The notes: generated by a model from the sequence alone, not told the origin. Shown: positions 4,044 through 30,819, counted from the stretch's first letter. The stretch is 64,000 nt of DNA from Gemmatimonadaceae bacterium (GCA_045803545.1 JBJMOW010000002.1:384001-448000); one strand, 5' to 3'. Numbers and translations are program-made.

Positions 4044-5018
4044 CTGAGCGACATTCGAGAGTTTCCCGTCGGGGCGGACAGCGATGTCCGCCTCGATTTG
4101 TTTGTAGCCCACCAGGCGGATCTGTCGCGGACTCAGGCGGCAACCCTCATCGCCAACGGCAACGTACTTGTCGACGGGCGCCGTGAACGGGCGAGCTACA
4201 AGCCCTTGAGTGGCGAAGTTGTGCGCGTCGAGATCCCGCGCGTAGAGAAGCGGGAGGTCCTTGGCGAGGACATCCCTGTCACGATCGTCTACGAGGACGA
4301 GTCGCTGCTGGTCGTCGACAAACCAGCCGGTATGGTGGTGCATCCAGCTCCCGGCAACTGGACGGGAACCCTTGTTAACGCATTGATTGGCCGAAGCGGG
4401 GGCCTGGCGAACGAGGGCGAGGAACCCGAGCGTGCCGGGGTCGTCCACCGCCTCGACAAGGAGACGTCCGGCCTCCTTATCGTCGCCAAAACGGATCGTG
4501 CCCATCGCCTTTTGAGCTCCGCCATCGCCACCCGACGGGTCACCCGGAGGTACGCGGTTATGACGTGGGGTCACCTGACATCGGATAAGCTGACTATCGA
4601 CAAGCCGATAGCGCGTGATCCGCGAGACCGGAAGCGCATGGCAATCGTCATTAAGGGTCGGCCGGCCAAGACCGACCTCATACGCCTTGCTCGGTTCGAT
4701 GCGGGGGACCTTCTTCGTGCCCATCTCCATTCCGGACGGACTCACCAAATCCGCGTTCATGTCGCGTCTATCGGCCATCCTGTCATGGGCGATGACACGT
4801 ATGGCGGGGGCGGAGGACGTCGTGTGGCCGGGCTTCCTCCCAAGCGGCACTTCCTCCACGCGGCCTGGCTCGCCTTCAATCATCCAGTGACAGGCAAGCC
4901 CCTCGATTTTCGCTCGCCTCTACCAGAGGATTTGCGCCGCTCACTCGATGTGATCGCCGGTCAACATTCATTGCCGGCCGCTGCCGATCCACTGGAGGCA
5001 TTCGGCTTCTATGAGTGA
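4044..5018 (+). CDS. rluD: RluA/RluD-family pseudouridine synthase with S4 domain; probable CTG start
   Basis: VRLDLFVA...LSR S4 motif, VDKPAGMVVHP, HRLDKETSG, GRTHQIRVH. The S4 RLD motif lies upstream of the ORF-track start at 4098. Confidence 0.92.
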   Translation: MSDIREFPVGADSDVRLDLFVAHQADLSRTQAATLIANGNVLVDGRRERASYKPLSGEVVRVEIPRVEKREVLGEDIPVTIVYEDESLLVVDKPAGMVVHPAPGNWTGTLVNALIGRSGGLANEGEEPERAGVVHRLDKETSGLLIVAKTDRAHRLLSSAIATRRVTRRYAVMTWGHLTSDKLTIDKPIARDPRDRKRMAIVIKGRPAKTDLIRLARFDAGDLLRAHLHSGRTHQIRVHVASIGHPVMGDDTYGGGGGRRVAGLPPKRHFLHAAWLAFNHPVTGKPLDFRSPLPEDLRRSLDVIAGQHSLPAAADPLEAFGFYE

Positions 5019-5502
5019 CGCGGTTACGCTGCCTCCAGAGCAAGAGGTTGCACAGGAAGCGCCGGTACCGACGCGACGCCTGCTGGTGTTCGACGTGGGT
5101 GGAACCCAGTTCGGTTGCGACATGGATGCGTTTCGCGAGATCGTCCCGACACCGCGATTAACCAGATTGCCCGGGGCGCCCGAGACGGTGTGTGGCCTGA
5201 TCAATCTTCGCGGCACCATCGTCACCGTTCTGGACGGCGGCCCGGTACTCGGAAGGCCTGCCTTCCGTCGCGCCGAGGGACTCGTCCTGATCATAGAGAG
5301 TCAGGAGCGATGGATTGGTATGGGCGTTGATGACGTGCGCGACGTCAAGGATGTACCGGTCGACAGCGTTCAACCCGCAGGTAGGCACAACGTACCGGTA
5401 GCGGCAGCGGTGACTGGAGAAGTGGAGATCGACGGCGAGCGCGTGTTTGTGCTCGATATCACAACGGTGGTTCAGCAAGTAATCGGAAAAGGGGGGAGAT
5501 AA
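5011..5502 (+). CDS. cheW: CheW coupling protein
   Basis: TRLPGAP...GLINLRGTIVTVLD and GMGVDDV motifs. Confidence 0.93.
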   Translation: MSDAVTLPPEQEVAQEAPVPTRRLLVFDVGGTQFGCDMDAFREIVPTPRLTRLPGAPETVCGLINLRGTIVTVLDGGPVLGRPAFRRAEGLVLIIESQERWIGMGVDDVRDVKDVPVDSVQPAGRHNVPVAAAVTGEVEIDGERVFVLDITTVVQQVIGKGGR

Positions 5503-5865
5503 GTGAGTAGCACTGTACTCGTTTGTGACGACGCCGTATTCATGCGGACGATGGTCAGCGACATCCTGTCGCAGGCTGGGTTTACCGTCGTTGGTGAAGC
5601 CGAGAACGGCAAGCAGGCGGTTGAGAAATACAAGCAACTCAAACCTGACCTGGTGACGATGGACATCATCATGCCGGAGATGGGCGGCATCGAAGCGGTG
5701 AAGCAGATCACCCAGGCCGATCCTGCTGCGCGAATTCTGATGTGCAGCGCGATGGGCCAGCAAGCGCTGGTGCAGGAGGCCCTGCAGGCGGGCGCGCGTG
5801 ATTTCGTGGTCAAGCCCTTCCAGCCGAGTCGAGTTTTGGAAGCCGTGCAACGGGTCCTCGCATAA
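5503..5865 (+). CDS. cheY: CheY single-domain response regulator (Thermotoga/Bacillus-like)
   Basis: VCDD, MDIIMPEMGG (phospho-Asp), MCSAMGQQ, VKPF; GTG start directly after the cheW stop. Confidence 0.93.
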   Translation: MSSTVLVCDDAVFMRTMVSDILSQAGFTVVGEAENGKQAVEKYKQLKPDLVTMDIIMPEMGGIEAVKQITQADPAARILMCSAMGQQALVQEALQAGARDFVVKPFQPSRVLEAVQRVLA

Positions 5866-7464
5866 GTGGATACCGGCCGCTATGCCAAGCTTTTTCTCTC
5901 CGAGAGCAAGGAAAACCTCGCCGAGATAAATGCCGCGCTCCTGGAACTGGAGCGGGGTGGCAGCGATGCGGCCGTTGCCCGACTTTTTCGGGCCGTACAC
6001 ACGCTCAAGGGAATGGGCGGGGCGATGGGCTATACGTCGGTCGCCGAGCTGTCCCACGAGCTGGAGACGCTGCTCGACAAGGTCAGGAACAGCGCAGTGG
6101 CAGTCACGCGGCCGATGATCGACACGCTCTTCGCGGGGGTAGACGCTCTCGAGCAGGCGGTCGAGGCCGCCACGGCATCCCCATCGGTGAATCTCGATGT
6201 CTCAGTGGTGATGGCGAAGGTTCGTGAGGCTGGAAGCGAAGAGAAGGCGCAGACTTTCGTCCAGGAGGTGTCGCCCGCGCCGCAGCCCAAACCGGAGCAG
6301 GAAGCGCCCGCAGCTCCTCCCAAAGCAACGCGTCAGATCAGAATCGATTCGAAGCGGCTCGACACCTTCATGAACGTGCTCGGAGAGCTCGTGATAGCGC
6401 GCGATCGGATTCAAAAGGCGGCTGAACGCATCGCCGATCCCGAGATGCTCGACGCGGTTCGTCACGCTTCGCAGATACTTGGCAATCTGCAGAATGAGGT
6501 AATGACCAGCCGCATGGTCCCGGTCTGGCAGGTCTTCGAGCGTTTCCCGCGGGTGGTGCGCGATACCGCGCGCACGCTGGGCAAGGAAGTCGACTTCAGA
6601 ATCGAAGGGCGCGACATCGAGCTCGATAGATCGATGCTCGACGAGATGGGCGAACCGGTGTTGCATTTGCTGCGCAACGCACTCGATCACGGCATCGAAA
6701 CACCGGCCGACCGTGAAAAAGCGGGGAAGCCGCGCACTGCCACGTTGATCCTCACTGCGGAGCGCGATCGCGCGACGGTCTTGATCCGGGTTACGGACGA
6801 TGGCCGCGGCATCGATCAAACGAAGGTGCTGCCGCGCGCCAAGAAACTTGGTCTCATCGACAAGACAACCACGAAACTGAATGAGCAGGAGCTGGTCGCA
6901 ATCATCTCGCGGCCCGGTTTCTCTACGGCGGACAAGGTTACCGAGATCTCGGGCCGCGGCGTCGGATTCGATATCGTCGCCAGCAGGGTGCGCGGACTCG
7001 GTGGCTCGCTCGAAGTGCACACCGATGCCGGGCTGGGCACTGCAGTCAGCATGCGCCTGCCGTTGACGCTGGCGATCTCCCGGGCGCTGCTGGCGAAAGT
7101 GGAGCGCGAGACCTATGCGATCCCGCTCACCCACGTCCTCGAGACTTTCAGTCTTTCCAAGCCGATGCTGCTGGAATCGAAGGGCAAGCCCGTCATAGCA
7201 ATTCGCGACGATCTTTTCCCGGCGATCTGGCTGCGCGAACGTGTCGGATTACCAGCACCGGATAATCCTGCGAGTGGTCAAGTGGTACTGGTCGAGCTCG
7301 CCGAGCGAAAAGCGGCGCTCATCGTCGATCAATTCGAGGGACAGCAGGAGATCGTCGTTAAACAGTTCGACGGCGTAGGTGGCAGCAAAACTTTATTCAG
7401 CGGCGCGACGATACTTGGCGATGGATCGCCCGCTCTGATCGTGGACGCTTCAAGCCTCCTCTAA
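5866..7464 (+). CDS. cheA: CheA histidine kinase (Hpt, dimerisation, HATPase and CheW domains; no evident P2)
   Basis: FRAVHTLKG (Hpt His), HLLRNALDHG, DDGRGID, SGRGVGFD, LPLTLAI, SGATILGDG. Confidence 0.96.
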   Translation: MDTGRYAKLFLSESKENLAEINAALLELERGGSDAAVARLFRAVHTLKGMGGAMGYTSVAELSHELETLLDKVRNSAVAVTRPMIDTLFAGVDALEQAVEAATASPSVNLDVSVVMAKVREAGSEEKAQTFVQEVSPAPQPKPEQEAPAAPPKATRQIRIDSKRLDTFMNVLGELVIARDRIQKAAERIADPEMLDAVRHASQILGNLQNEVMTSRMVPVWQVFERFPRVVRDTARTLGKEVDFRIEGRDIELDRSMLDEMGEPVLHLLRNALDHGIETPADREKAGKPRTATLILTAERDRATVLIRVTDDGRGIDQTKVLPRAKKLGLIDKTTTKLNEQELVAIISRPGFSTADKVTEISGRGVGFDIVASRVRGLGGSLEVHTDAGLGTAVSMRLPLTLAISRALLAKVERETYAIPLTHVLETFSLSKPMLLESKGKPVIAIRDDLFPAIWLRERVGLPAPDNPASGQVVLVELAERKAALIVDQFEGQQEIVVKQFDGVGGSKTLFSGATILGDGSPALIVDASSLL

Positions 7465-7465
7465 C

Positions 7466-8113
7466 ATGACTGACACGCGCAATACACCACCCGGCGAGAG
7501 CGGCACGACATTGCTGAGCACGGCGCGACTTGACGCACTACGTGAAGTCGCCAACATCGGCGCTGGGCACGCAGCAACGGCACTCTCCACGCTCACAGGC
7601 ACCCGCATCATGATCAGTGTGCCGATGGTCAACATCGTGCCGCCGGGCGATTTCGTGCCCGAAATCTCACCGGGCGCAGAGATCGTCTCGGTGCAGATGG
7701 CGATGAGCGGCGACATTGGGGGGCAGACCGTGTTTCTGCTCGACGTCCACGCGGGCATCCGGCTCGCTGAGCGAATGCTGCGGCGCAACCGCGGCACATC
7801 TCCGGACCTTGGCAAGCTGGAGCAATCGGCGCTGAACGAAGCCGGAAATATTCTCGCCGGCGCTTATCTGACGGCGCTGAGCGATTTCCTTGGCATGCGT
7901 CTGCTGTTGTCACCGCCGTCTTTGATACGAGGCGAATCGCGCGACGCGTTGAGGAGCGTCGGCGATCACGCACCGCGCGTAGACTCGCCCATTCTCTGCG
8001 TAGAGACCGAGTTTTTCCTCGACGAGCCGGCTGAGAGCCTGCACGGGTTCTTCCTGCTCGTTCCCGATCCCAAGGCTTTCGACGCCATCTTCCGCGCGGT
8101 GCGCGTAGAGTAG
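7466..8113 (+). CDS. cheC: CheC-family CheY-P phosphatase
   Basis: Two D/S-xxx-E-xx-N active-site motifs: DALREVANIGAGHAA and SALNEAGNILAG. Confidence 0.92.
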   Translation: MTDTRNTPPGESGTTLLSTARLDALREVANIGAGHAATALSTLTGTRIMISVPMVNIVPPGDFVPEISPGAEIVSVQMAMSGDIGGQTVFLLDVHAGIRLAERMLRRNRGTSPDLGKLEQSALNEAGNILAGAYLTALSDFLGMRLLLSPPSLIRGESRDALRSVGDHAPRVDSPILCVETEFFLDEPAESLHGFFLLVPDPKAFDAIFRAVRVE

Positions 8114-8117
8114 TCTC

Positions 8118-10562
8118 ATGAGCGCAGCGGCAACTGCCCGCCCAATGGCAGCCGCGCACGGCGGTGAGATCGACATCCTGCGTTCGTTTGCCCGCCGTAT
8201 CGATCCATCGGACGCGGGGGCATACAACAATCTCGGTGTCCTCTACTTCCGGAAGGGGCTGACCGACGAAGCCATCGTCGCATTTTCGCGCGCGTTGGCG
8301 CTCGATGAGCGCATGCACGTCGCGCGTCGGAATCTCGAGATCGCCTACGGTGAGAGCGGCTTGCTCGAACGCCGACTGCAGGAGCTCGAGGAGCGGCTGC
8401 GCACCAATCCGGCCGACGTCGAAGCGCTGGTGCAGAGCGGCATCGCCGAAAAGACGGCAGGACATCTGGAGCGTGCGCACTCGCTATTCCAGCGCGCGAT
8501 CGATCTCGATGCCGACAGCTCGGTCCTGCACTTTCTGCTGGCGGAAACACTTTACAATCGCGGCCTCCACGAAGAGGCTCTTCGATCGGTAAAACGCTCG
8601 ATCGAGCTGAATCCCGACAACCCCGACGCGTTGTATCTCATTGGCTTCATACTCGGCGATCTTGGCCGTGCCGAGGAAGCAGCAGACGCCAATCGTCGCG
8701 CCGTACAGCTGAACCCGACATTGGTGCGTGCGCAGGCGAACCTCTCGCTCGAGATGTATCGTCACGAGGTCACACCGAGCCAGGCGCACAAGACGTCAGC
8801 TGGCGCGCACATCACCCTTGGTCGCGCGCTCAGACAGAAAGGCTACTTCCAGGAAGCGCTGAAGGAGTACGAGCGCGCAATTGAAGGCGGCGAGGCCAAC
8901 GCGGAAGTCCTGCAGGCGATGCTCGAGCTGTACTTGCTCCAGCGCGATACCGGCGCCGCGATCGCAACAGCCGACCGCTTCGCGCGCGAGTTCTCTCCGA
9001 GCGCGAAGACGTGGAACGGTCGCGGCGTCGCGCTGCAACTGGCGGGGCGCCACGCAGAGGCGGAGCAGAGCTACAATCGCGCCCTCGAGGTGGACTCGAG
9101 CTATCCGTACGCGCACAACAATCTCGGCGTTCTGCTCTGGCACAAGCACGACACCAAGTCCGCGATCAACGCCTTCCGCCGCGCACTGCAGGCGCCGAAT
9201 CCCCCTGTCGAAGCCCGACTCAACCTCGCGCTCGGCTTGTTCCGCAGAAAGCACGTCGAGCTGGCGCTGGAAGCGTATCGACAGATACTTGCTGCTGCGC
9301 CAGAGCATCCGGTGGCGTGGAACGGTATCGGCTTGATCCTCGTCGAGCTGGAGAAGTACTCGGACGCCCGAAACGCGTTCGCTCGTGCCATTCAGGCGAA
9401 CCCTGATTTCGCTGAAGCGCATTACAACATGAGCTTCACGCTCTCGAATCTGGGCGATTTCACTGCGGCACTGCGCGAGACTAAGCGCGCGCTCGAGCTC
9501 GATCCGATGTACACGCCGCAGAAGCTGGAACTGGCGATCGAGCTGCCACACGAGGAGATCAGGCTCACTGTCGCTCCACCGATCACGGAGAAAGACGAAA
9601 GCGTCGACCATGTCGAGGACTTCCATTTCGACCCAGCGATCATCGAGGAGCTGTTTGCCGAGAAGCGATCGCGGAAGACACCATACACGCCGGAAGATCC
9701 GCTTGCTGGGTTTGCGCTCGCGCGCGACCTGATTACCAAAGGGCTGTACGACAGGGCGCAGGGTGAGATCGCGCGCGTCCTTGCGCGTGGTGGTGACAAG
9801 GTTCTGGGCCTCGTGCTGGCAGGCGATGGATTCGCCGCGCAGGGGTTGCACGGTGAAGCGCTCGAGCGGTATCGCCGCGCGTTGGAGATGGACGACAACA
9901 ACTCCTACGCACGACAGGGGATCGCACGCTCGCTGCTCGCCCTTGGCCGGCCGGATGAAGCGAGACCGTACGCGGAAGCTCTGGTTGCGGCGGGCAGCAC
10001 CGACGTCAACCTTCTGCTGCTTGCCGCGGAAGCGCGCGTTGCATCGGCGGATAAGTCCGGAGCGCGCGAGATCCTGTTCGCGCTCCAGAGTAGCGAGGGC
10101 AGGAATGCGAACGTTCTGAAACGCGTCGCGGATCTTTATGCCGCGCTCGACGACGTACTGGAGGCGATTGGTGCTTACCGCGCCAGCCTCAGCATCGACG
10201 AGCGACAGGTGGAGGGTCGTATCGCCCTCGGTAGATTGCTGGCGAAATCCGGAGACGATTCCAGCGCGATCCGCGAGCTCGAAGCGGTGCTCGTCACTGC
10301 ACCGAGCAATGACATCGCGGTAGTCGAACTCGTGGGGCCGTATCGGCGCACCGGCCGTTCGCGCAGCGCACTGCCGCGCATTGTGGCCTTGATCCGCCGC
10401 GACGTGTACCACTTCGCGGGGCTCATTGCTTTGGGTGAGATCCTGATCGACCTCGCCCGCGACAGCGATGCACTTCGGGCATTCGAGCGAGTGCTCCGGT
10501 TCGACCCCAACCACTCGGAAGCAATGCGGTACCGCCGGCTTCTACTCAGAGGCCGCGTCTAA
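8118..10562 (+). CDS. Large cytoplasmic tetratricopeptide-repeat protein
   Basis: Many TPR units (AYNNLGVLY, AHNNLGVLL, AWNGIGLIL, AHYNMSF); no signal peptide or TM segment. Confidence 0.88.
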   Translation: MSAAATARPMAAAHGGEIDILRSFARRIDPSDAGAYNNLGVLYFRKGLTDEAIVAFSRALALDERMHVARRNLEIAYGESGLLERRLQELEERLRTNPADVEALVQSGIAEKTAGHLERAHSLFQRAIDLDADSSVLHFLLAETLYNRGLHEEALRSVKRSIELNPDNPDALYLIGFILGDLGRAEEAADANRRAVQLNPTLVRAQANLSLEMYRHEVTPSQAHKTSAGAHITLGRALRQKGYFQEALKEYERAIEGGEANAEVLQAMLELYLLQRDTGAAIATADRFAREFSPSAKTWNGRGVALQLAGRHAEAEQSYNRALEVDSSYPYAHNNLGVLLWHKHDTKSAINAFRRALQAPNPPVEARLNLALGLFRRKHVELALEAYRQILAAAPEHPVAWNGIGLILVELEKYSDARNAFARAIQANPDFAEAHYNMSFTLSNLGDFTAALRETKRALELDPMYTPQKLELAIELPHEEIRLTVAPPITEKDESVDHVEDFHFDPAIIEELFAEKRSRKTPYTPEDPLAGFALARDLITKGLYDRAQGEIARVLARGGDKVLGLVLAGDGFAAQGLHGEALERYRRALEMDDNNSYARQGIARSLLALGRPDEARPYAEALVAAGSTDVNLLLLAAEARVASADKSGAREILFALQSSEGRNANVLKRVADLYAALDDVLEAIGAYRASLSIDERQVEGRIALGRLLAKSGDDSSAIRELEAVLVTAPSNDIAVVELVGPYRRTGRSRSALPRIVALIRRDVYHFAGLIALGEILIDLARDSDALRAFERVLRFDPNHSEAMRYRRLLLRGRV

Positions 10563-11308
10563 TGGCGATCGAAGGACCACTGCGCGAGCTGAGTATTCAC
10601 GACGTCTTCCAGCTGCTCGACCTTAGCCGGAAGACGGGAACGCTGCGCGTGCATTCGCCGGAGCGAAACAACGAAGGAAGCGTCTACTTCGACGCCGGCA
10701 CCATCGTCGCCGCGACGATGAAGAGCAACCCGCATCTGCTCGGGACGATTCTCGAGCGCTCGGGCAAGGCGACACCAGCTGACCTGGCGCGCGCGACCGC
10801 CATGCAGCGCGCGGGCGACAAGCGACGTGTGGGTGAGATTCTCGTTGCGCAGGGTGTGGTGACACCACGCGACATCGATCGATTCATGCGACTGCAGATC
10901 GAGACCGTGGTGTTCGATCTCATGTCGTGGTCGGAGGGATTCTTCTCGTTCACCGAAGAGCCGCCTCGCCCGATCAGAAAGGACATTGCGGTTCGCGTGA
11001 GCACGGAATCGCTGCTGATGGAAGGAGCGCGTCGCATCGACGAATGGTCGCGGATGGCCGACAAAATCCCGGATTCCCTTGTCGTACCACGTCTGGCACC
11101 GTTGGACGACGGACCCGAGTCGTTCATCGATCTGCTGCCGCGCGAATGGGAAATCCTTTCCATCATCGACGGTGAGCGCAGCCTGCACGAGATTGCGAAG
11201 CGGCTCGTTCTTCCCGAATTCGAGGTCGCCAAGATCATCTACGGTATGTTGAGCACTGGTCTGATCGAGATCACTCCACAGGAACATGACGCAGCCGCCA
11301 GTGTCTGA
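10562..11308 (+). CDS. DUF4388 (PATAN-like) domain protein with C-terminal wHTH-like segment
   Basis: MAIEGPLRELSIHDVFQLL...KTGTL, W.EG.FSF, LLMEGARRIDEW; internal RRVGEILVAQG motif. Confidence 0.85.
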   Translation: MAIEGPLRELSIHDVFQLLDLSRKTGTLRVHSPERNNEGSVYFDAGTIVAATMKSNPHLLGTILERSGKATPADLARATAMQRAGDKRRVGEILVAQGVVTPRDIDRFMRLQIETVVFDLMSWSEGFFSFTEEPPRPIRKDIAVRVSTESLLMEGARRIDEWSRMADKIPDSLVVPRLAPLDDGPESFIDLLPREWEILSIIDGERSLHEIAKRLVLPEFEVAKIIYGMLSTGLIEITPQEHDAAASV

Positions 11309-11681
11309 GGCCGCGCGCATGTTGTTCGCCACGGCGATCGGCGAAGCCGAGCAGACGGCATTGCTGCTCGACTCGGTCGGCGTCCCGCTGGCCGGGAGCT
11401 ACATCGACCAGAGTGGTCGCGACATCTCTGGTGAGATCGGCGCAGCGCTCAGCGGCGTCAGCAAGGAAGTCTCGCGGTCGATGCGGATGCTTGCGATCGG
11501 AAACTGGACCGCAGTCGTGGTCGAGACCGATGCGGCGACAATCGCCCTCGCTCCGGCAACGGACGATGCGGTCGTGCTTCTTGCTTCTTCGTCAACAGTT
11601 CCGCTCGGCCTCGTACGACGGGTGTTGACGCGCTCCGTCGCACTGGCAATCAACTGGATGCGTGACAGGATGGGCCGATGA
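11286..11681 (+). CDS. Roadblock/LC7 (MglB/MglC-like) protein
   Basis: 131 aa; LLLDSVGVPLA near the N-terminus and PLGLVRR in the C-terminal helix; mglA neighbourhood. Confidence 0.75.
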   Translation: MTQPPVSEAARMLFATAIGEAEQTALLLDSVGVPLAGSYIDQSGRDISGEIGAALSGVSKEVSRSMRMLAIGNWTAVVVETDAATIALAPATDDAVVLLASSSTVPLGLVRRVLTRSVALAINWMRDRMGR

Positions 11682-12037
11682 AAGACGTCGCTCAGATTGT
11701 TGGCTCCTTGTCACGCGTGCCTGGTGTCACCGTCGCTATGATCGTCGGCGCGATCGACGGCCTCATCGTCGAGGCGAGCCAGGTTCCCGGCGCGCAGACC
11801 GAGGGCGACCGCAAGAAACACACAGCGGCATTGGCGGCGTATCTGTACTCGAAAGTGACGCGGGCTTCGAACGCGGCGCGGCTTGGCGTGCCCGCCTTCA
11901 TGCGACTCGAGGCGGAGAAGGGGCACATCTGCGTCGTTGGCGCGCGCGAACTGGTACTGGTAACGATCGTCGCGCCGGATGCGAACCTGGGACGAGTGAG
12001 ACTCGAGATGATGACCGCAGCGAAAGAGGCAGCGTGA
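11678..12037 (+). CDS. Roadblock/LC7 (MglB/MglC-like) protein
   Basis: VPGV..AMIV..IDGLIVE, AALAA, ANLGRVRLEM; ATGA overlap with the previous gene. Confidence 0.82.
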   Translation: MKDVAQIVGSLSRVPGVTVAMIVGAIDGLIVEASQVPGAQTEGDRKKHTAALAAYLYSKVTRASNAARLGVPAFMRLEAEKGHICVVGARELVLVTIVAPDANLGRVRLEMMTAAKEAA

Positions 12038-12522
12038 GCGATCCGACGGTAGCGGAAGCCTGGGTGGCGGCGCCTTTGCGCCGTCTCATGGAAGATGCCC
12101 GATTGATTTCCGGCGTGCTGCTTTATCCAAGCGGCCGCGCTGTTGGACAGTTCGGCTTCAGCAACGCCGCCGACGTGATGTCGATCTGTGCGCTCACTTC
12201 GGCGATTAACGCGTCGGCGCGCGAGCTCGGCCGCCAGCTCGACGGCAAACCTTTTTACGAGATGCATCACGCCGGCGCCGAGCGCCAGGTTTTCATGGCC
12301 CGTGCATCGGCTGGCACACAGGAATTCCTTTTCGTCGGCGTCTTCGATCGCGAAAGCTCGCTGGGCGTGGTCGAGATGTATTTCACGGAATTCCAGAAAG
12401 CGCTGGAGAAACTTCGCCCCGATGTACCAACGACCACGCCCCCGATCAAACCGGGTGGCGATTTCGAGGGCGAGCTCAATCGCAGTCTCGACGCCCTCTT
12501 CGGACCGGTAGGAAAACGCTAG
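12034..12522 (+). CDS. mglB: MglB-like Roadblock protein with C-terminal helical extension
   Basis: GTG at 12034 overlaps the upstream [14 protein letters not shown] motif; Pro-rich linker then [14 protein letters not shown]; directly precedes mglA. Confidence 0.75.
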
Positions 12523-12523
12523 A

Positions 12524-13126
12524 ATGTCAGTCGTCAACTACGGCACGCGTGAAATCACGTGCAAGATCGTGTACTATGGTCCAGGGAGATCCGGCAAGAC
12601 GACGAATCTCCAGCATGTCTACTCGAAGCTCCCCGAGGAGCGTAAGGGAAAAATGGTCTCGCTGGCGACAGAGACCGACCGCACGCTCTTCTTCGATTTT
12701 CTTCCGCTCGATCTAGGAACGATCTCGGGTTTCGCGACGCGGTTCCAGCTTTACACCGTGCCTGGCCAGGTCTACTACGCCGCGACCCGCAAGCTGGTGC
12801 TGCAGGGCGTCGACGGTGTGGTGTTCGTCGCCGATAGCCAGTCCCGTCAAATGGCTGAGAACATCGAGAGCCTGCAGGACCTGCACGCCAATCTCGCCGA
12901 GGAAGGTCACGATCCGCGCAGCATTCCGCTCGTGATGCAGTACAACAAGCGCGACCTGCCGAAATCCGAGATCAGCTCCATCGAAGATCTGGACGAGACC
13001 CTCAACTTCAGGGGCGTTCCGCATTTCTCCGCCACCGCCGTCAGCGGCGGTGGAGTATTCGAAACGTTGCGCAGCATCTCGACCCTGGTGCTATCGAGGT
13101 TGAGCGCACCCGCGGGCAAAGCCTGA
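12524..13126 (+). CDS. mglA: MglA small Ras-like GTPase
   Basis: [16 protein letters not shown] (G1), [17 protein letters not shown] (G3), YNKRD (G4): Myxococcus/Thermus MglA signature. Confidence 0.96.
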
Positions 13127-13128
13127 CC

Positions 13129-13344
13129 GTGGCCGAACCGACGCGCAAGCAGGACGAAGAAGAAGGCGGAGAATTCGCCGAGTTCCTGGCTGATGTCAGC
13201 CACGAAATCGCCGCGCGCGTCGAGTCGCTGCAAACGCCATCACAGTCTACAGATCCCGTTAAGAAGACGCCTGTCGGCGCCGACGGCGGTGTAATCGTCG
13301 AGTGGCCCAACATCGCTGATCGCATGATAGAGGAATTGCGTTAA
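13129..13344 (+). CDS. Small acidic hypothetical protein (71 aa)
   Basis: Fills the mglA-to-DUF4388 gap exactly; TAATG overlap with the next gene. Confidence 0.65.
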   Translation: MAEPTRKQDEEEGGEFAEFLADVSHEIAARVESLQTPSQSTDPVKKTPVGADGGVIVEWPNIADRMIEELR

Positions 13345-14624
13345 TGGCGATCAAGGGCAGTCTCAAGGAAGCGAGTCTCCCCGACGTACTGCAGCTGCTG
13401 TCGATGGGAAAGAAAACCGGCTGTCTCGGTCTGTCGTTCCACGACAGCTTCGGCTCCATCTACTTCGACAACGGCCGCATTTGCCACGCGGCGATCGTAA
13501 ATCGGCCGCTCGACACCGAGAACTCGGTCTACACGCTTTTCACATGGACGAGCGGCACCTTCAACTTCGAAGCGAACGTCGAGCCTGAAGAAGGCGCCGA
13601 GCGCGTCTCGGTTGATCCACAGTCGCTCCTGCTCGAAGGTGCGCGTCGTGTCGATGAGTGGTCGCTGATCGAGAAGAAGCTGCCCAGCTTCGATGTCGTA
13701 TTCAGCCTGGACCGAGCGAAGCTGATGCTGAACCGCGATCCGCTTTCCCCGGAGCAGGAAGCGTTGCTCCCGTTGATCGACGGGCATCGCGACGTCAACG
13801 GTTTGATCCGTGATTCCGGCCTCGGCGAGTTCGAAGTTGGGAAAGCACTGTACGGTCTGCTGAATGCCAACTTCCTGCTGCCGGTCGGCCGCAAGCGCAC
13901 TACCCCGACGCTGCCACGGAACGCGAGCCCGCTCGAACGGCGAGAACTGGCGAGCGCCTTGTATCGCGCGGGGATGCACGACGAAGCTTTGCGTGAATTC
14001 CGCGCGATCGTAGAGGAAGCTGCTGATCCAGTCGCCTCGTTCCACCTTGGATTGATCGCGTTGCGCCAGAAGGAGTACTCCTCAGCGGTGAATTCCTTCA
14101 TGACGGCTGCGCCACACGCGCCGAGCAAGACGGCGCTGCTCCACAATCTTGCGCTGGCGTACGACGCGCTCGGCCAGCTCGAAAAGGCAAAGCTGGTCAT
14201 AGAGCGGGCGCTGAGCTCTGGCGGAAGCTCCGAGCCGCTGATTCAACTGGAAGGCGCCGTCGTAGCGCTGAGACTCGGCGACTATCAGACTGCGAAGATC
14301 CGTCTGAGCGAAGCGCGCAGCCTGTGGACGAGCAATCCTCCGCCCGCCATCTGGTTCCATTACGCCGCACAGGTCGCTGCGATGACGGACGACCCCGACC
14401 GCGAGATGCTTTTGCTGGCGGCGGCGACAGAGGCACATCCCGAGTCGGCAGTTCTTCTCAACAATCTGGCTGCCGCGAACCTCAAGCGAGAGGACTACGC
14501 TGCCGCGCGCGACGCCGCGGAGAAGGGAATCGCGATCGCTCCGGAATTATCTCAACTTCGGCGCAATCTGTCCGCGGCGCTCGAAGCGTTGTCCCACGCA
14601 GACCGTCAGGCGGCGAACCGTTGA
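13344..14624 (+). CDS. DUF4388 domain protein with C-terminal TPRs
   Basis: MAIKGSLKEASLPDVLQLL...KTG, W.SG.FNF, LLLEGARRVDEW; TPR-like LLHNLALAY and LLNNLAAA. Confidence 0.85.
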   Translation: MAIKGSLKEASLPDVLQLLSMGKKTGCLGLSFHDSFGSIYFDNGRICHAAIVNRPLDTENSVYTLFTWTSGTFNFEANVEPEEGAERVSVDPQSLLLEGARRVDEWSLIEKKLPSFDVVFSLDRAKLMLNRDPLSPEQEALLPLIDGHRDVNGLIRDSGLGEFEVGKALYGLLNANFLLPVGRKRTTPTLPRNASPLERRELASALYRAGMHDEALREFRAIVEEAADPVASFHLGLIALRQKEYSSAVNSFMTAAPHAPSKTALLHNLALAYDALGQLEKAKLVIERALSSGGSSEPLIQLEGAVVALRLGDYQTAKIRLSEARSLWTSNPPPAIWFHYAAQVAAMTDDPDREMLLLAAATEAHPESAVLLNNLAAANLKREDYAAARDAAEKGIAIAPELSQLRRNLSAALEALSHADRQAANR

Positions 14625-15454
14625 GCGCTGAAGTGATCAAAGCCGATGACGCGGGCTTTCGGACGCTGATGGAGAAAATCACGCGCGACAGCGGATTTCG
14701 CTGCGCGAGCTACAAGGATAAATGCTTGCGGCGGCGCATCGCCGTTCGGATGCGCGCGAAAGGCGCGTTCACCGCGACCGAATACGCGGGCGTTCTCGAC
14801 ACCGATCCGCGCGAGTACGAGCGGCTGCTGCGATCGCTAACGGTGAACGTGACCAAGTTTTTCAGAAACCCCGAGACTTACGCGGCAATCGAGAAGCAGG
14901 TAATTCCCTCGCTCTGGAGCTCGAGCGAAAACGGGATGCGCATCTGGAGCGCCGGATGCGCGTCGGGTGAAGAGCCATACTCGGTCGCGATACTGTTGGA
15001 CAAGCACGCGAGGGAAACGCGCAGTGAGAAGCGACTGCAGCAGGTCGATCTACTCGCGACCGACATCGACAGCGAAGTACTCGGCGAAGCGGAGCGCTGT
15101 TTTTATGCGGAATCGTCGCTGGCCGAAACTCCGCTTGCGCTCAGGGATCGGTATTTCCCGCAAGTCGCTGGTTTGAGGACCATGCTGCCCGAGGTGAGAC
15201 AGCTCGTTCGCTTTGAAAGCGATGATCTGCTCGGGTTCAGACCGCCCGTGTCCGAGGTTCACCTGATTCTCTGCCGAAACGTCATCATTTACTTCGAACG
15301 CGAAGCGCAGGACAGGTTGTTCGCCGAATTCCACCGTGTGCTTGCACCGGGTGGATTCATGGTCCTCGGCAAAGTGGAGACTCTGCTCGGCGAGGCGAGG
15401 GGACTTTTCACTCCCGTGAACGCACGCGAACGGATTTTCCAGAAGGCGTCGTGA
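14621..15454 (+). CDS. cheR: CheR protein-glutamate methyltransferase
   Basis: TVNVTKFFRN, IWSAGCASGEEPYS, ATDID, ILCRNVIIYF; start probably TTG 14621 (TTGA overlap) or GTG 14633. Confidence 0.94.
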   Translation: MSAEVIKADDAGFRTLMEKITRDSGFRCASYKDKCLRRRIAVRMRAKGAFTATEYAGVLDTDPREYERLLRSLTVNVTKFFRNPETYAAIEKQVIPSLWSSSENGMRIWSAGCASGEEPYSVAILLDKHARETRSEKRLQQVDLLATDIDSEVLGEAERCFYAESSLAETPLALRDRYFPQVAGLRTMLPEVRQLVRFESDDLLGFRPPVSEVHLILCRNVIIYFEREAQDRLFAEFHRVLAPGGFMVLGKVETLLGEARGLFTPVNARERIFQKAS

Positions 15455-16548
15455 TCGAGCTTGCCACAAACTCTGACGCAACGACGGTTCTCGTCGTCGA
15501 TGACAGCGCCTTCATGCGGAAGCTGATCGCCGAGCTGGTCGAAGCGAGTGGGCCATTCCGCGTAATTGGAACCGCATCGGATGGTGTCGAAGCCCTCCAG
15601 AAGGTGCGCATTCTCAAGCCGCAGATCGTCACGCTTGATATCGAGATGCCGCGCCTCAATGGCTTGCAAGCCCTCGAGCAGATCATGGCAGAGATGCCGC
15701 GCCCAGTGGTGATGCTCAGCGCCGCTGGTTCCGATCTCGGCAACGAGATGACGCTGCGCGCTCTGGAGCGGGGCGCGCTCGAATTCGTGCGCAAGCCTTC
15801 CGGACCCGTCAGCATTGATCTCTCGAAAGTACGCGAGCAACTGCGCTCAGCCCTCGAGGCCGCGCGAGCGGTGAACATGCAAAGCGTGACGACCGCGCCA
15901 CCGTCCACGCCGCCACCCCCGACCGTCGCCGAAGCGCCGTCGCCCGATGCTGCGACCCGCGTTATCGCGATCGCATCGTCGACAGGCGGACCACGTGCGC
16001 TCGCCGAGATCATTCCGCGACTTCCAGCAGAGTTGGGAGCGGCTGTAATCATCGTCCAGCACATGCCCCACGAGTTCACGAAGCTGCTGGCGTCGCGACT
16101 CAACGCGTTGAGTCAACTCTGGGTTGGCGAAGCGATCTCGGGGAAAACTCTTCGCGAGAATCGTGTCTATGTCGCGCCGGGAGGCCAGCACATGCGACTT
16201 CGCGGCTCGCCGGGAACTGCGACGATCGAGCTGGATAACACATCTCCGATGTGGGGCGTGCGTCCGGCCGCGGATCCGCTTTTTTTCTCGGTCGCCGAGT
16301 CGTTCGGCAGTTCCGCCGTCGGGATCGTGCTGACCGGGATGGGACGAGACGGCGCGGAGGGACTCAAGCGCATCCGCGACGCAGGCGGAGCTGCGATCGT
16401 GCAGGATCGTGAGAGCTCCTTGATTTACGGAATGCCACAGGCGGCGTTTGCCGCAGCCGGGGCAGATAGCGTCGCGACTATAGAAGAAATGGCGCCGACG
16501 ATCGTGAAGTTGTTATCAACCAAAGTGAGAAAAAAACAACATGCGTAG
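15451..16548 (+). CDS. cheB: CheB methylesterase with receiver domain
   Basis: REC domain (VDD, LDIEMP); catalytic motifs ASSTGGP, VQHMP, RPAAD and LTGMGRDG. Confidence 0.96.
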   Translation: MIELATNSDATTVLVVDDSAFMRKLIAELVEASGPFRVIGTASDGVEALQKVRILKPQIVTLDIEMPRLNGLQALEQIMAEMPRPVVMLSAAGSDLGNEMTLRALERGALEFVRKPSGPVSIDLSKVREQLRSALEAARAVNMQSVTTAPPSTPPPPTVAEAPSPDAATRVIAIASSTGGPRALAEIIPRLPAELGAAVIIVQHMPHEFTKLLASRLNALSQLWVGEAISGKTLRENRVYVAPGGQHMRLRGSPGTATIELDNTSPMWGVRPAADPLFFSVAESFGSSAVGIVLTGMGRDGAEGLKRIRDAGGAAIVQDRESSLIYGMPQAAFAAAGADSVATIEEMAPTIVKLLSTKVRKKQHA

Positions 16549-17671
16549 AATGCTGGTTACGGGCGCTGCCGGGTTCATCGGCAGCAACTTCGTTCAGTGG
16601 TGGGTCGAGCATCATCCCGGCGACATCGTTGTCGGGTATGATTCGCTGACTTACGCTGGCAACCTGGCCAGCCTCGAGCCGGTCGCGAAGAACAAGCAGT
16701 TCAGCTTTGTGAAAGGTGATATTCGGGATGGCGACGGGGTGCGGGAGATCCTGAAGCGCGATGGCATCGACACAATCGTCCATTTCGCCGCTGAATCACA
16801 CGTCGATCGATCCATTCGGGGTCCTGATCCGTTCATCGAGACCAACGTCGTGGGGACCCACGCGCTCTTGAAGGCCGCCCGCGATGTGTGGGGAGAGGAC
16901 TGGTCGGGCGGTGCTCGTCGCTTCCACCATATCTCGACGGACGAAGTGTACGGGTCGCTGGCTCCGACAGGGGCGCCGTTCACTGAAGACACGCCCTACG
17001 CGCCCAATTCGCCATATGCGGCGAGCAAAGCTGCCTCGGATCACCTCGTTCGGGCGTATCACCACACCTATGGGCTGCCGGTAACGACCACGAACACGTC
17101 GAATAACTACGGCCCTTACCACTTTCCGGAAAAGTTGATCCCGTTGGCGATCGTGAACGCGCTCGACGGCAAACAAATCCCGGTCTACGGCGATGGTTTG
17201 CAGATCCGCGACTGGCTATACGTCCGCGACCATTGTCGCGGGATCGAGAGAGTTCTGGAGAAGGGACGTATCGGCGAGACGTACAATCTCGGCGGCAACG
17301 CCGAGCGTAAGAACATCGAAGTAGTGAAGTCGATCTGCGCCCACATCAACAAGATCTTTGGCGCCGATCCAAAGATCGGCGAGCGGTTTTCCAAGTGTCC
17401 AGCGGCCACCGGCGGCGACGCGGGCGAGCTGATCAAATTCGTCAAGGATCGGCCGGGGCACGACCGGCGCTACGCTATCGACGCGATGAAGGCGACTCTG
17501 GAGACGGGGTACGGGCCGTCGGAATCATTCGAGACCGGCCTGTTGAAAACCATCAATTGGTACATCGCCAACGAAAAGTGGTGGCGCGCAGTGATGGACG
17601 GCAGCTATCGCGACTGGATCGAGCTCCACTACGCCGACAAGCCGCGCACTTCCAGAAAGACCACGGCGTAG
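16541..17671 (+). CDS. rfbB: dTDP-glucose 4,6-dehydratase
   Basis: GAAGFIG, HFAAESHVDRS, STDEVYG, YAASK, DRPGHDRRY. Confidence 0.95.
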   Translation: MRRMLVTGAAGFIGSNFVQWWVEHHPGDIVVGYDSLTYAGNLASLEPVAKNKQFSFVKGDIRDGDGVREILKRDGIDTIVHFAAESHVDRSIRGPDPFIETNVVGTHALLKAARDVWGEDWSGGARRFHHISTDEVYGSLAPTGAPFTEDTPYAPNSPYAASKAASDHLVRAYHHTYGLPVTTTNTSNNYGPYHFPEKLIPLAIVNALDGKQIPVYGDGLQIRDWLYVRDHCRGIERVLEKGRIGETYNLGGNAERKNIEVVKSICAHINKIFGADPKIGERFSKCPAATGGDAGELIKFVKDRPGHDRRYAIDAMKATLETGYGPSESFETGLLKTINWYIANEKWWRAVMDGSYRDWIELHYADKPRTSRKTTA

Positions 17672-17707: not shown

Positions 17708-17736
17708 TTGACACGCATTTCATCCAGCCCTACACT
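17708..17736 (+). promoter_or_regulatory. Sigma70-type promoter
   Basis: TTGACA (17708-17713), 17-nt spacer, TACACT (17731-17736); 9 nt before ATG 17746. Confidence 0.75.
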
Positions 17737-17745
17737 ACCTCGCTT

Positions 17746-17943
17746 ATGGCCAAGAATGATTTGGGCTCCGGCCCGCGCGTTGGCAGCGAGCCGGGCTCAC
17801 GCCGGGGCTGGTTGTATTGGACGATTGCGACAGTTGTGTTGCTCGCCGGCTTCGCAGACCTCGCTCGAGGTGGCGAGACCCTGGCGCCAATTCTCCTGGT
17901 TATCGGCTACTGTGTGCTCGTACCGCTGGCCATTCTCAGGTGA
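17746..17943 (+). CDS. Small two-TM membrane protein (65 aa)
   Basis: Two hydrophobic segments, ending LAPILLVIGYCVLVPLAIL; sits directly behind a good promoter. Confidence 0.7.
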   Translation: MAKNDLGSGPRVGSEPGSRRGWLYWTIATVVLLAGFADLARGGETLAPILLVIGYCVLVPLAILR

Positions 17944-17967
17944 CCGGATCGGCTCGTTTTCTGCACC

Positions 17968-18041
17968 GGGCGAGTAGCTCAGTTGGTTAGAGCGCCTGCC
18001 TTACACGCAGGAAGTCGGGGGTTCGAGTCCCTCCTCGCCCA
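17968..18041 (+). tRNA. tRNA-Val (anticodon TAC); CCA not encoded
   Basis: Acceptor stem GGGCGAG/CTCGCCC, D arm AGCTCAGTTGGTTAGAGC, anticodon arm CCTGC-CTTACAC-GCAGG, T loop GGTTCGAGTCC. Confidence 0.97.
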
Positions 18042-18111
18042 CTTAAACCACACGAGGACCCACAGATGACAGGTGGGGTACAGAATGTTTACTGATTGGG
18101 AGGTTACACCA

Positions 18112-19878
18112 TTGAAGGCCCGTCTACGTCTTCCAAGTCTCGTTCTAGCCTTTGCCGTGGTCGCAGCACCGCCGCTCCTCGCCCAGAACCAAAAGACTGG
18201 CGACAGAGTAATGGTCCCGACGCTGCAGAGCGCGGACAAGGATCTCGGTGTCCAGGCAGCTGAAGCGATTCGCAATCAGCTAACCAAGCAAACCAACCTT
18301 CGTGAGCTCGTCGTGGTTCCGAAGGCCGACATAAACAACAGCCTCCAGTCCTCCGGATACTCGACTACGGAAGCGCTCGCGCCCGGGGATGCAAAAGCGC
18401 TCGCCACACTGGTGCGCGCCCCGCAGTATCTCGAAGGCAACGTTTCCAAGACGCCGACTGGCTTCAAAATCGAGTCGCGACTCATCATTTCACGCGACAT
18501 GACGAAAGCCCAGGTTTTGCCGGTTGCACAGGGCGCCAAGCTGGACGATGCCGCGAACCAGGTCGCAAAGGCGATCAAGGATGCTCGTCGTCAGCTGCCG
18601 GATGAAGAGACCTGCCACAACAACTTCGCTCAGGGCAAGTATCAGGATGCGGTTAATGGCGCGCGTGCCGCGCTGGCGAGGAATGGCGGCGCCAACATCC
18701 TGGCGATGTGCCTCGCTGAATCGTACGACAGACTTCACCAGCCCGACTCCGCGATTGCTGTCGCAGAGAGGGTGCGCGCGACTGATCCGCGTAGCATCCC
18801 AGCTCTCAGGCTGCTTGCGACGACCTACCGTTCGATGATCGATTCTCCTCGGCCAGGCGTCACGCCAGCAGAATTGAGCCAGGACACCACCAGACTGCTG
18901 CAATCTCTCGCGGCGATGGCCGCAGCGGATCCGACCAACATCAAGTTGGTTCAGGACGTAATCAACACCTATCCGCAGCTCCACCGGCCGAAGGACGCAA
19001 TTCCACTCGTGCGCGATCTGCTCCAGAACAATCCAGGCGACCCAGCGTTGCTCAATCAGGCGTGGCTGGTTTACCTGAACGCGGGCAATTCCACGCTGAT
19101 GAGTGCGCGAACCCAGGCCGACACAACCGAGGCACGTGGCATGTTCCAGAGCGCGGTTGACGTCGGTACCGAGATGGCCCGGGTGGACACCGCTCAGGCG
19201 ACGATAGACTACTACCGGCGTTTGATGGCCGCTTATTCCGCGCTGCAGCAGCCGCAGAAAGCCTCTGAGGTCGCAGCGCTCGCTACCAGGAGATTCCCGA
19301 ACGACCCCACGCTCAGCGTCCTCAACGCGAACAACCTGTACAAGAGCGGGCAACTCCAGCTGGCGTTGGATGCGGTGAACAAGATTCTCGCGGCTGACCC
19401 CAAGAACGCGAACGGGTACTTCCTCAAGGCGCAGATCCAAGCCGGCTTGAACCAGAACGACGAGCTTGAAAAAACACTGCAGACCGCGAGGACCAACGGA
19501 GTTGATCCAGGTGCTCTGTCGCAACTCGCGCTCAAGGCGGGTAGCGATGCGTACAAGGCTGGCCAGGCGTCGAAGGATATTGCTGACTTCCAGCGCGCGA
19601 TTCGATTCCTGCAGCTCTCCGATCAGCTTCAGACCTCGGCCGACGCCAAGTTTCTGCTCGGGGCCAGCGCTTTCTCGGTTGGACAGACTGCAACTATCTC
19701 AGCTAACGACAAGAGAAGCTGCGAGCTCGCTCGTACCGCTCGTGACGCGTTCAACCTCGCGTCGATTAACCTGCCGGCGGGTGGGCAGAAGTATCCGAAC
19801 GAAGCCGCTCAGCTGCTGACGGCGATCCCACAGTTCACGCCGGCCGTCGACAACGAGGTGAAGCGCTTCTGTAAGTGA
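18112..19878 (+). CDS. Secreted/periplasmic TPR-like protein
   Basis: GGAGG SD then TTG 18112; Sec signal ending PLLA-Q; helical repeats (NGYFLKAQIQ, AKFLLGAS); GTGA overlap with rsmH. Confidence 0.8.
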   Translation: MKARLRLPSLVLAFAVVAAPPLLAQNQKTGDRVMVPTLQSADKDLGVQAAEAIRNQLTKQTNLRELVVVPKADINNSLQSSGYSTTEALAPGDAKALATLVRAPQYLEGNVSKTPTGFKIESRLIISRDMTKAQVLPVAQGAKLDDAANQVAKAIKDARRQLPDEETCHNNFAQGKYQDAVNGARAALARNGGANILAMCLAESYDRLHQPDSAIAVAERVRATDPRSIPALRLLATTYRSMIDSPRPGVTPAELSQDTTRLLQSLAAMAAADPTNIKLVQDVINTYPQLHRPKDAIPLVRDLLQNNPGDPALLNQAWLVYLNAGNSTLMSARTQADTTEARGMFQSAVDVGTEMARVDTAQATIDYYRRLMAAYSALQQPQKASEVAALATRRFPNDPTLSVLNANNLYKSGQLQLALDAVNKILAADPKNANGYFLKAQIQAGLNQNDELEKTLQTARTNGVDPGALSQLALKAGSDAYKAGQASKDIADFQRAIRFLQLSDQLQTSADAKFLLGASAFSVGQTATISANDKRSCELARTARDAFNLASINLPAGGQKYPNEAAQLLTAIPQFTPAVDNEVKRFCK

Positions 19879-20828
19879 TCGCCTCCGATGCCGTGACTGG
19901 CCCGTGGGATTCATCGTACCACGCGCCGGTCATGGTCGAGGAGGTTCTGAATCTCCTCGAAGGCACCAAAGAGATCCTGGACTGCACGTTGGGCGGTGGT
20001 GGCCACAGCGAAGCATTTCTCGCAGCAGGCGCTGATGTCACCGCTCTCGATCAGGATCAGGCGGCAATCGATGAAGCACGAATGCGGCTCGCAGCCTACG
20101 AGGCAGCGGGCCGCTTTCGTGCTTTGAGAGGCAATTTCAGCGACATCGACCAGTTGCCCGAGCTCCAGCATCGCCAGTTTCAGGGGATTCTCGCCGACCT
20201 CGGCGTTTCCTCACACCAGATCGACGCCGACGATCGGGGATTCTCGTTTCGCCCGGGTGCGTTACTCGACATGAGGATGGACAGTCGCTCTACTACCACC
20301 GGCGCCGATTTACTCAACACTCTCGATGAAGCAGCACTCACCCGACTTTTTCGCGAATATGGCGATGAGCCGCGCGCGAGCCGTCTCGCGCGCGAGGTTG
20401 TGCGCCGTCGCGCAAATCGACCGATGAGAGTGAGTGATGATCTTGTCGATGCGATTCGCGGGTCGTTTGGACCGCGCAGCGGGCCTTCCGATTTCGCGCG
20501 ACTATTTCAGGCCGTGCGGATCGCCGTCAACGACGAGCTCGGCGCTCTGGAGCGCGCGTTGCCGCTGCTGCGCAATCGTCTGGCGCCAAACGGGCTGATG
20601 GCAGTGATCGCTTACCATTCTGGCGAAGATCGCATCGTCAAGAACGCCTTCCGCGAATGGAGCCGGGATTGTGTCTGCCCCCCCAAGCACCTGCAATGCA
20701 CGTGCGGTGGCAAGAATTCGCTTGGACTGGTGGTGACGCGCAAGGCAATCAAGGCTGGCGCGGAAGAAATCGAAAAGAACTCACGCTCGCGCAGCGCGAG
20801 ATTGCGGGTATGGCGAAGGGCGGCGTAG
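19875..20828 (+). CDS. rsmH: 16S rRNA m4C1402 methyltransferase
   Basis: HAPVM, DCTLGGGGHS, DLGVSSHQ, LDMRMD, FQAVRIAVN, RSRSARLR. Confidence 0.97.
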   Translation: MIASDAVTGPWDSSYHAPVMVEEVLNLLEGTKEILDCTLGGGGHSEAFLAAGADVTALDQDQAAIDEARMRLAAYEAAGRFRALRGNFSDIDQLPELQHRQFQGILADLGVSSHQIDADDRGFSFRPGALLDMRMDSRSTTTGADLLNTLDEAALTRLFREYGDEPRASRLAREVVRRRANRPMRVSDDLVDAIRGSFGPRSGPSDFARLFQAVRIAVNDELGALERALPLLRNRLAPNGLMAVIAYHSGEDRIVKNAFREWSRDCVCPPKHLQCTCGGKNSLGLVVTRKAIKAGAEEIEKNSRSRSARLRVWRRAA

Positions 20829-20830
20829 GC

Positions 20831-30785: not shown

Positions 30786-30819
30786 GCACGCGGCCTGCGC
30801 GGCGCTTAACCTTCACACG

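Follow-up and report, generated by a model that had tools for sequence, protein, structure and literature searches.

A conserved chemosensory gene block of Gemmatimonadales with a nested MglA, PATAN and TPR module and a small ORF related to a tandem DnaA-type ATPase

We describe here a block of 14 genes in a 64,000-nt stretch of DNA, one strand, from a Gemmatimonadaceae bacterium (GCA_045803545.1 JBJMOW010000002.1:384001-448000), hereafter the window, to which gene coordinates refer unless a contig or locus is named. Open reading frame (ORF) calls and Pfam matches place 14/14 ORFs of the block on the + strand at 5011..16548, in order from cheW to cheB. A set of Mgl-related genes is nested between cheC and cheR within a set of chemosensory (Che) genes, as follows, with the two features that come after the block given last (aa, amino acids).

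5011..5502, +: cheW (PF01584, E 8e-28), the sole CheW gene found in the window's own genome by tblastn
5503..5865, +: cheY, a stand-alone receiver by Pfam and the most conserved protein of the block
5866..7464, +: cheA, with Hpt, dimerization, HATPase and CheW domains, F1-like and missing P2; the sole CheA found in its own genome
7466..8113, +: cheC phosphatase, by Pfam, with two E-x-x-N motifs
8118..10562, +: 814-aa multi-TPR protein, by Pfam, conserved in position among relatives
10562..11308, +: first DUF4388/PATAN protein, with an MshEN-like insert (a cyclic di-GMP, c-di-GMP, motif) and a C-terminal winged helix
11286..11681, +: Roadblock/LC7 protein 1, by Pfam, which has lost the N-terminal TPR head of its relatives
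11678..12037, +: Roadblock/LC7 protein 2, by Pfam
12034..12522, +: Roadblock-3, an MglB homolog with a C-terminal helix (6izw_B, E 1.1e-5)
12524..13126, +: mglA paralog, a small GTPase of the MglA family (5ymx, E 9e-78)
13129..13344, +: 71-aa ORF, by profile matches a remnant of an approximately 650-aa tandem DnaA-type AAA+ ATPase
13344..14624, +: DUF4388/PATAN protein with winged helix-turn-helix (wHTH) and TPR, by Pfam, from which the MshEN-like insert is cleanly deleted in this genus
14621..15454, +: cheR methyltransferase, by Pfam, with a TTG start; cheD comes next in relatives and is absent here
15451..16548, +: cheB, receiver plus methylesterase, by Pfam and motifs
16541..17671, +: nucleoside diphosphate (NDP)-sugar 4,6-dehydratase (rmlB-like), a coupled passenger outside the conserved block
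17708..18042, +: sigma70-like promoter match (TTGACA-17-TACACT) followed by tRNA-Val(TAC), a likely boundary before a TPR-rsmH-dcw run

The 13 junctions of the block measure, in gene order, 0, 0, 1, 4, -1, -23, -4, -4, 1, 2, -1, -4 and -4 nt, and together with the coordinates and Pfam matches they confirm the original prediction of 14 co-oriented, near-abutting genes in this order. All frames are open, and inspection of residues shows that the catalytic motifs expected of CheA (H45 plus H and G boxes), CheY (D54/K104), CheC, CheB (S/H/D), CheR (S-adenosylmethionine motifs) and MglA are indeed intact. The expected continuity with ileS-lspA-rluD also holds, since rluD overlaps cheW by 8 nt and relatives have the same flanks; a second 8-nt overlap, cheB/rmlB, lies at the other end. 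Horizontal acquisition was considered and rejected, because GC content is flat (60-63% in the block, 58-63% in the rest of the window), the flanks are identical in 20/20 loci, and CheA has diverged from its relatives much as the housekeeping proteins have (identities of 50, 49 and 51% for CheA, IleS and RluD).

Beyond the window, 100 loci were gathered, which fell to 80 once 2 duplicates and 18 loci too short to hold the second DUF4388 gene were set aside, a sample in which close relatives are enriched. By their record titles nearly all of the 80 loci obtained with the first DUF4388 family are Gemmatimonadota or subgroups of it, with one Planctomycetota and one Longimicrobiales, and the closest relatives are Gemmatimonadaceae. 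CheA was matched in 38 of 41 genomes, the window's own included, and of 20 loci from among these matches 20/20 keep ileS-dksA-lspA-rluD-cheW-cheY-cheA-cheC-TPR-DUF4388-Roadblocks and 16/20 keep mglA. CheA is encoded in the block in all 65 loci with enough upstream sequence, mglA is present in 73 of the 80, and among 23 further loci across families, one of them cut by a contig end, cheA and mglA occur together in 18. This synteny survey supports the proposed pairing of the Che and Mgl genes, which have been kept together in a single arrangement across the taxonomic order and class. DUF4388-TPR is present in 23/23 of the further loci, a figure that makes it appear a hub partly through sampling, because a DUF4388 match led to 20 of them. 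When the first DUF4388 family was used as a marker in 121 genomes drawn evenly from the phylum, it was found in 84 and was absent from 37, with 23/28 and 54/55 in the two largest families and 0/15 outside the class; an Atlas cluster with WOR-3 as its commonest taxon fits a wider range of the block. The block is a conserved gene arrangement common to most Gemmatimonadales. Some mglA genes of Group 1 lie near PATAN genes (Wuichet and Sogaard-Andersen, PMC4316618), and supplementary file 3 of that paper gives PATAN>MglA>-PATAN for Gemmatimonas aurantiaca GAU_1409, while entries for che or dnaA are absent from the file; GAU_1409 is probably the same mglA paralog as the operon copy. Literature searches, which covered three of the four PMC4316618 supplement files and no supplements of other papers, found no description of the block. 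It is a conserved, apparently undescribed arrangement of known parts, to which the window adds a minimal variant and the identity of the 71-aa ORF.

That variant becomes apparent when the 80 loci are sorted by content into 52 full forms, 21 that resemble the window and 7 that resemble it and also lack mglA. Full forms have cheD between cheR and cheB in 42/42 loci that reach cheB, against 0/25 for the reduced ones; they have an MshEN-like insert in DUF4388-TPR in 51/52, a TPR head on Roadblock-1 and, in the one full form scanned, a longer CheA with P2. Where the window has its 71-aa ORF, full forms encode a protein of approximately 650 aa with two Bac_DnaA domains carrying Walker motifs. The ATPase domains, the TPR head and the MshEN-like insert of DUF4388-TPR are all missing from 28/28 reduced loci. 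In a tree on flanking housekeeping genes the reduced loci form one clade, so the reduction counts as one lineage and not as 28 events. The genus of the window carries this reduced form, without cheD, CheA P2, one MshEN-like insert and the ATPase domains. Neither a relocated cheD nor a tandem ATPase was found elsewhere in its own genome, cheD was not found in 5/5 further genomes, and in 5/5 genomes lacking the operon mglA no second mglA was found, the canonical copy being the only one. Several full forms carry extra cheW genes after cheB.

The 71-aa ORF keeps two elements, an EFxxFLxD helix start and a C-terminal WPxxxxRxxEE motif, with both ATPase domains gone and no AAA+ domain III detected by Pfam. 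Over its C-terminal 22 columns it aligns with the tail of the tandem ATPase (probability 96%, E 5e-9), and a profile of its N-terminal half falls on the same mid-protein position, within a helix, in 38 of 40 full proteins, 36 of the 38 matches exceeding the best shuffled score of 3.2 bits. On profile evidence the ORF is shown to originate from the tandem DnaA-type ATPase. The two motifs appear to be under purifying selection, with pN/pS (nonsynonymous to synonymous ratio) of 0.11-0.18 when compared with the five closest relatives and 0.40-0.69 when compared with nine distant ones, against 0.51-1.47 for the linker. These values are indicative, because substitutions at synonymous sites are almost saturated and conservation was itself used to pick the motif columns. 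An AlphaFold2 model of one full ATPase has a mean pLDDT (predicted local distance difference test) of 81; in it the first motif lies at the start of a long helix in the confidently modelled middle domain, and the second sits on a low-confidence tail that ends in a helix. The AAA+ modules of the full form superpose on B. subtilis DnaA domain III with a TM-score of 0.93, a fold search with the model listed AAA+ folds of DnaA and p97 type and none particular to the middle domain, for which an ESM Atlas search yielded no usable match. The full-form relatives are thus like DnaA and Hda in their two DnaA-type AAA+ modules and differ from them in having no match to the DNA-binding domain IV (Pfam, 2/2 full proteins scanned) and in adding the helical middle domain and the C-terminal motif; the window, for its part, keeps 71 residues and no ATPase. 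The true dnaA of the genome lies on contig C2. Another genus also has a stub with these two motifs (L117). In the best tree it falls outside the clade of the window, so that two origins are needed, which would suggest convergence; the approximately unbiased (AU) test does not reject a single origin (p 0.29). Three loci (L112, L114, L123) have an apparent single-AAA+ version of the tandem protein. As a surviving fragment, the 71-aa stub may be the docking adaptor of the lost ATPase.

We next consider what kind of pathway the Che genes encode. Among NCBIfam models the best matches are CheA_Halo (458 bits, against 328 bits for the E. coli-type model), CheY_Halo and the Thermotogales CheC, all below their equivalog cut-offs, and the best PDB chains for CheA are 3ja6 and 1b3q, which we take to be T. 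maritima chains. From these best model and PDB matches the Che core can be read as F1-like, in agreement with the Bacillus/Thermotoga type with CheC that had been predicted. CheD and P2 are typical of class F1, as they are, with CheC, of flagellar systems. The genome, 93% complete, yielded one CheA, one CheW and one CheC by tblastn, and both CheD and CheA P2 are absent from it; P2 has been reported as dispensable (PMC10782961). Against full-form relatives CheY has a median identity of 79%, compared with 49% for IleS. F1-like content, together with the loss of several parts from the window copy, could be taken to mean that the genes belong to ordinary flagellar chemotaxis or are what is left of such a set in decay. 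Flagellin and FliM/N were not found in the window's own genome, however, and flagellated relatives use another che cluster: each of three flagellated genomes has a separate one, with a second CheA within 7 kb of flagellin in two of them. A remnant is also hard to reconcile with open frames, intact motifs and stub motifs that look selected, and we consider this explanation highly improbable. Across the phylum sample flagellin is present in 20 of the 84 marker-positive genomes and absent from 64.

If not a flagellum, then type IV pili are available as an output, as the detection of pilus genes and the lack of detected flagellar genes in this genome bear out: it encodes six ATPases of PilB/PilT type, PilC and PilM, and PilM is found in 82/84 marker-positive genomes. 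We infer that, among the outputs considered, type IV pili are the best candidate. Two additional PilB-like ATPases carry fused tails, one being MshEN-T2SSE-receiver-GAF (902 aa) and the other MshEN-T2SSE-NUDIX (712 aa); encoded at G000:C4 1246397-1247542 and 830184-831326 (L007, L008), they are possible targets or inputs of the system. As for input, no match to a chemoreceptor (methyl-accepting chemotaxis protein, MCP) was found in any fetched locus of the block, and the two chemoreceptors of the genome both lie on other contigs. One orphan MCP, which has a long segment before its HAMP domain, aligns over 294 of its residues with 294 of T. maritima TM1143 (2ch7), presumably a receptor of class 44H, and may pair with the CheA of the block. 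A periplasmic binding protein gene overlaps the gene of this receptor by 4 nt (G000:C4 1208665-1211594; L004 5666-8595) and is a candidate sensory input. Receptors occur in 79 of the 84 marker-positive genomes and, among non-flagellated genomes, in 59/64 with the marker against 1/25 without it, figures that describe a co-occurrence and do not test it because the genomes are related. Two more pairs of CheR/CheB type lie in the genome without a CheA (G000:C2 513702-514967 and C4 1224203-1226051).

The nested module includes a single-domain GTPase that carries G1, R53/T54, Q82 and NKRD and stands close to the MglA of M. xanthus and T. thermophilus. It has the sequence characters of Group 1 of the MglA family, including a cognate MglB gene directly upstream: the MglB-like Roadblock-3, which has no Pfam match, ends 1 nt before mglA and matches M. 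xanthus MglB over its length. A canonical mglBA pair is present elsewhere in the genome, behind dnaX-ybaB-recR, and its MglA (G000:C6 128269-129449; L003 7269-8449) has an insertion of approximately 25 residues near the C-terminus relative to the operon and M. xanthus proteins. The first DUF4388 protein is shorter than its counterparts in full forms, which end in a TPR tail, and the profile of its family matches PilF (E 8e-12) and MshE 5HTL (E 8e-6). No SgmX model is among the NCBIfam matches listed for the 814-aa TPR protein.

These parts suggest a route, which we put forward tentatively and at somewhat less than an even chance: the nested genes may pass the signal of phosphorylated CheY (CheY-P) on to both the pilus motor and a second MglA switch, setting where or when type IV pili work. 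First of all, one or both orphan chemoreceptors would signal through CheW-CheA to CheY, with CheC resetting the signal and CheR and CheB providing adaptation, steps that rest on established chemosensory biochemistry. Second, CheY needs another target because no flagellar switch (FliM) was found, and the target of CheY-P would lie among the proteins of the operon itself, with the DUF4388-TPR scaffold as the likeliest one. Third, the PATAN domains (PATAN being DUF4388) could contact the pilus motor PilB/PilC, as in Synechocystis, where PATAN binds PilB1 and PilC (10.1101/2021.06.11.447907). MglA and its MglB-like partner would restrict that contact to one pole, and the 814-aa TPR protein might act as an effector similar to SgmX, a TPR protein that together with MglA-GTP stimulates pili in M. 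xanthus (PMC7519303). Finally, the 71-aa stub would serve as a passive adaptor that still docks as the lost ATPase did, and c-di-GMP may tune the first DUF4388 protein, the motif being imperfect here. We doubt, while still considering it, that the same parts form one physical machine, in which the chemosensory kinase would drive a dedicated Ras-like switch via PATAN-TPR scaffolds, and a co-opted replication-initiator fold would serve as a remodelling ATPase, cut (possibly twice) to a 70-residue two-motif adaptor whose C-terminal acidic tail would dock on a TPR protein in the manner of Hsp70 and Hsp90 tails.

Several observations weigh against a relay from CheY to MglA and pili. The canonical mglBA could do the polarity job by itself, and CheY and MglA may simply belong to slowly evolving families (the operon MglA still matches its Myxococcus counterpart at E 9e-78), so their high identity need not mean coupling. 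PilM is found in 115/121 genomes of the phylum and, being near-universal, does not single out pili as the target. Likeness of the 814-aa protein to SgmX is an analogy from TPR content. The MshEN c-di-GMP receptor consists of two 24-residue RLGxx...LxxxLxxQ motifs (PMC5013675); in the first DUF4388 protein of the window motif 2 reads RVG..Q and motif 1 is without Arg, and the protein scores 34.4 bits with NF053729, below the curated cut-off of 38. Separate loss also counts, because an obligate circuit would resist it: mglA is missing from 7/80 loci, L120 and L133 have the Che core without mglA (L133 without the Mgl module as a whole), L117 has mglA without cheW, cheY, cheA and cheC, L115 has neither cheA nor mglA, L121, L131 and L132 are without matches to Roadblock and cheR, and L116 and L128, in which MglA has diverged, are without matches to cheW, cheR, cheD and cheB. 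The gene content and order of the proposed single-operon circuit stand, and the idea of a circuit is weakened by halves that can be lost separately and by receptors and a canonical mglBA encoded elsewhere.

Such losses fit an alternative in which the modules merely share a transcription unit within an old housekeeping supra-operon (ileS-dksA-lspA-rluD ... rsmH-dcw) and work largely apart, one being an F1-like pathway with unknown output and the other a spare Mgl/PATAN module. The absence of mglA from 7/80 loci, without relocation in 5/5 genomes tested, the split halves of L133 and L117 and the gaps in L121, L131 and L132 all agree with it, and conserved housekeeping flanks alone can hold a gene order. 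On the other hand, the Mgl genes sit inside the Che set, after cheC and before cheR, where stops and starts overlap or abut, and losses on the Che side (cheD, P2) go together with losses on the Mgl side (ATPase, TPR head, insert) in 28/28 reduced loci where testable, although these joint losses count as one lineage because the reduced loci form one clade. We regard such largely separate working as unlikely, if deserving of some weight.

A further possibility, in our view rather unlikely, is a Dif-like control of exopolysaccharide or surface matrix, with pili and the Mgl/PATAN module upstream as an input from surface contact. The dif locus of M. xanthus is reported to have the gene order cheW-cheY-cheA-cheC, the same as the block. 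Dif-like clusters of Geobacter combine a 44H receptor with CheA, CheW, CheY, CheC, CheD and CheR (PMC2577667), a gene set that full forms of the block share; in the window a sugar dehydratase overlaps cheB, and there are nine GGDEF matches in the genome. The dehydratase is, however, confined to the subclade of the window (16/17 window-type loci against 0/26 others), no fetched locus of the block has a receptor gene, and the match of CheY to EpsW is weak, 58 bits for a cut-off of 200. The block thus resembles Dif and Dif-like systems in its CheW, CheY, CheA and CheC (plus CheD and CheR in full forms), in a probable non-flagellar output and in a receptor of 44H length if TM1143 is, as we assume, of that class, here encoded outside the block. 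It differs from them in having CheB, in the inserted Mgl/PATAN/TPR module with the DnaA-type ATPase or its stub, and in having no 44H receptor gene with a tiny periplasmic domain, the orphan MCP having a long pre-HAMP segment.

As in M. xanthus Frz, a chemosensory pathway, MglA and an MglB Roadblock partner occur in a genome with type IV pili (PMC3441718). FrzE, on the other hand, is a CheA of the ACF class with a fused receiver and has FrzZ as a neighbour (PMC3441718), whereas the window CheA, which consists of Hpt, dimerization, HATPase and CheW domains with no C-terminal receiver, is F1-like and accompanied by CheC. In M. xanthus mglA lies apart from its partner genes (PMC4316618), and in the window a second mglA and mglB lie inside the che genes, accompanied by genes for PATAN, TPR and additional Roadblock proteins. 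By the criteria of membership the block is neither a Frz nor a Dif system. The best NCBIfam models, and the P2 and CheD of full forms, align it with class F1 of Bacillus, Thermotoga and haloarchaea, from which it departs in that a flagellar motor target was not found in its own genome and CheD and P2 are absent from the window copy. DUF4388 domains encoded in a che locus also recall cyanobacterial Tax regulators of PatA type (10.1101/2021.06.11.447907), although here they are fused to wHTH or TPR and not to a receiver, with an MshEN-like insert carried or lost.

The flanks bear on one more reading. A circuit for the cell cycle or division, in which the DnaA-derived ATPase and the position before dcw would tie polarity to replication or asymmetric division, could draw on the two DnaA domain III modules of full forms, with their Walker motifs, and on a dcw cluster that begins within about 3.3 kb after the block. 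The block had been predicted to lie just upstream of dcw, and its position is as described; the link is weakened by the promoter-like site (17708-17736) and the tRNA-Val (17968-18042) that lie between them, the promoter match being weak by itself because scans for sigma70 sites and terminators gave no more sites than shuffles. With the ATPase lacking a domain IV match, a whole genus having dropped both ATPase domains and the marker absent from 37/121 genomes, we hold a cell-cycle role to be improbable. The dcw cluster extends over 19875-35797 (rsmH to ftsZ), with no mraZ match directly upstream; the gene before rsmH encodes a TPR protein of 601 aa that probably has a signal peptide. A hydrophobic ORF of 65 aa (17746-17943) lies between the promoter-like site and the tRNA-Val, with similar small ORFs in the same position in L017 and L117. 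The dehydratase replaces a TPR gene that follows cheB in 22/26 other loci. At the opposite end, the rluD frame is open upstream of TTG 4098 to CTG 4044, two bases past the lspA stop, and the extra residues resemble the N-terminus of RluD; a start at CTG 4044 would place the "terminator" hairpin at 4068-4097 inside the gene.

The significance of the block has a ceiling, as every functional step proposed for it is inferred. The route from chemosensory output to the MglA switch was left open in Myxococcus (PMC3441718, 2012). The candidate parts of such a route lie in one block across an abundant, little-studied group, and thus provide a short list of proteins to test. The group has few cultured or tractable strains. 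The block is likely to be an F1-type pathway with a non-flagellar output, and if its parts did form one physical machine, the deletions seen in nature would trace the core of a new path by which chemoreceptors reach cell polarity. The parts that survive the loss of CheD, P2, the ATPase domains and one c-di-GMP-type insert point to the key ones, with DUF4388-TPR and the two-motif stub foremost.

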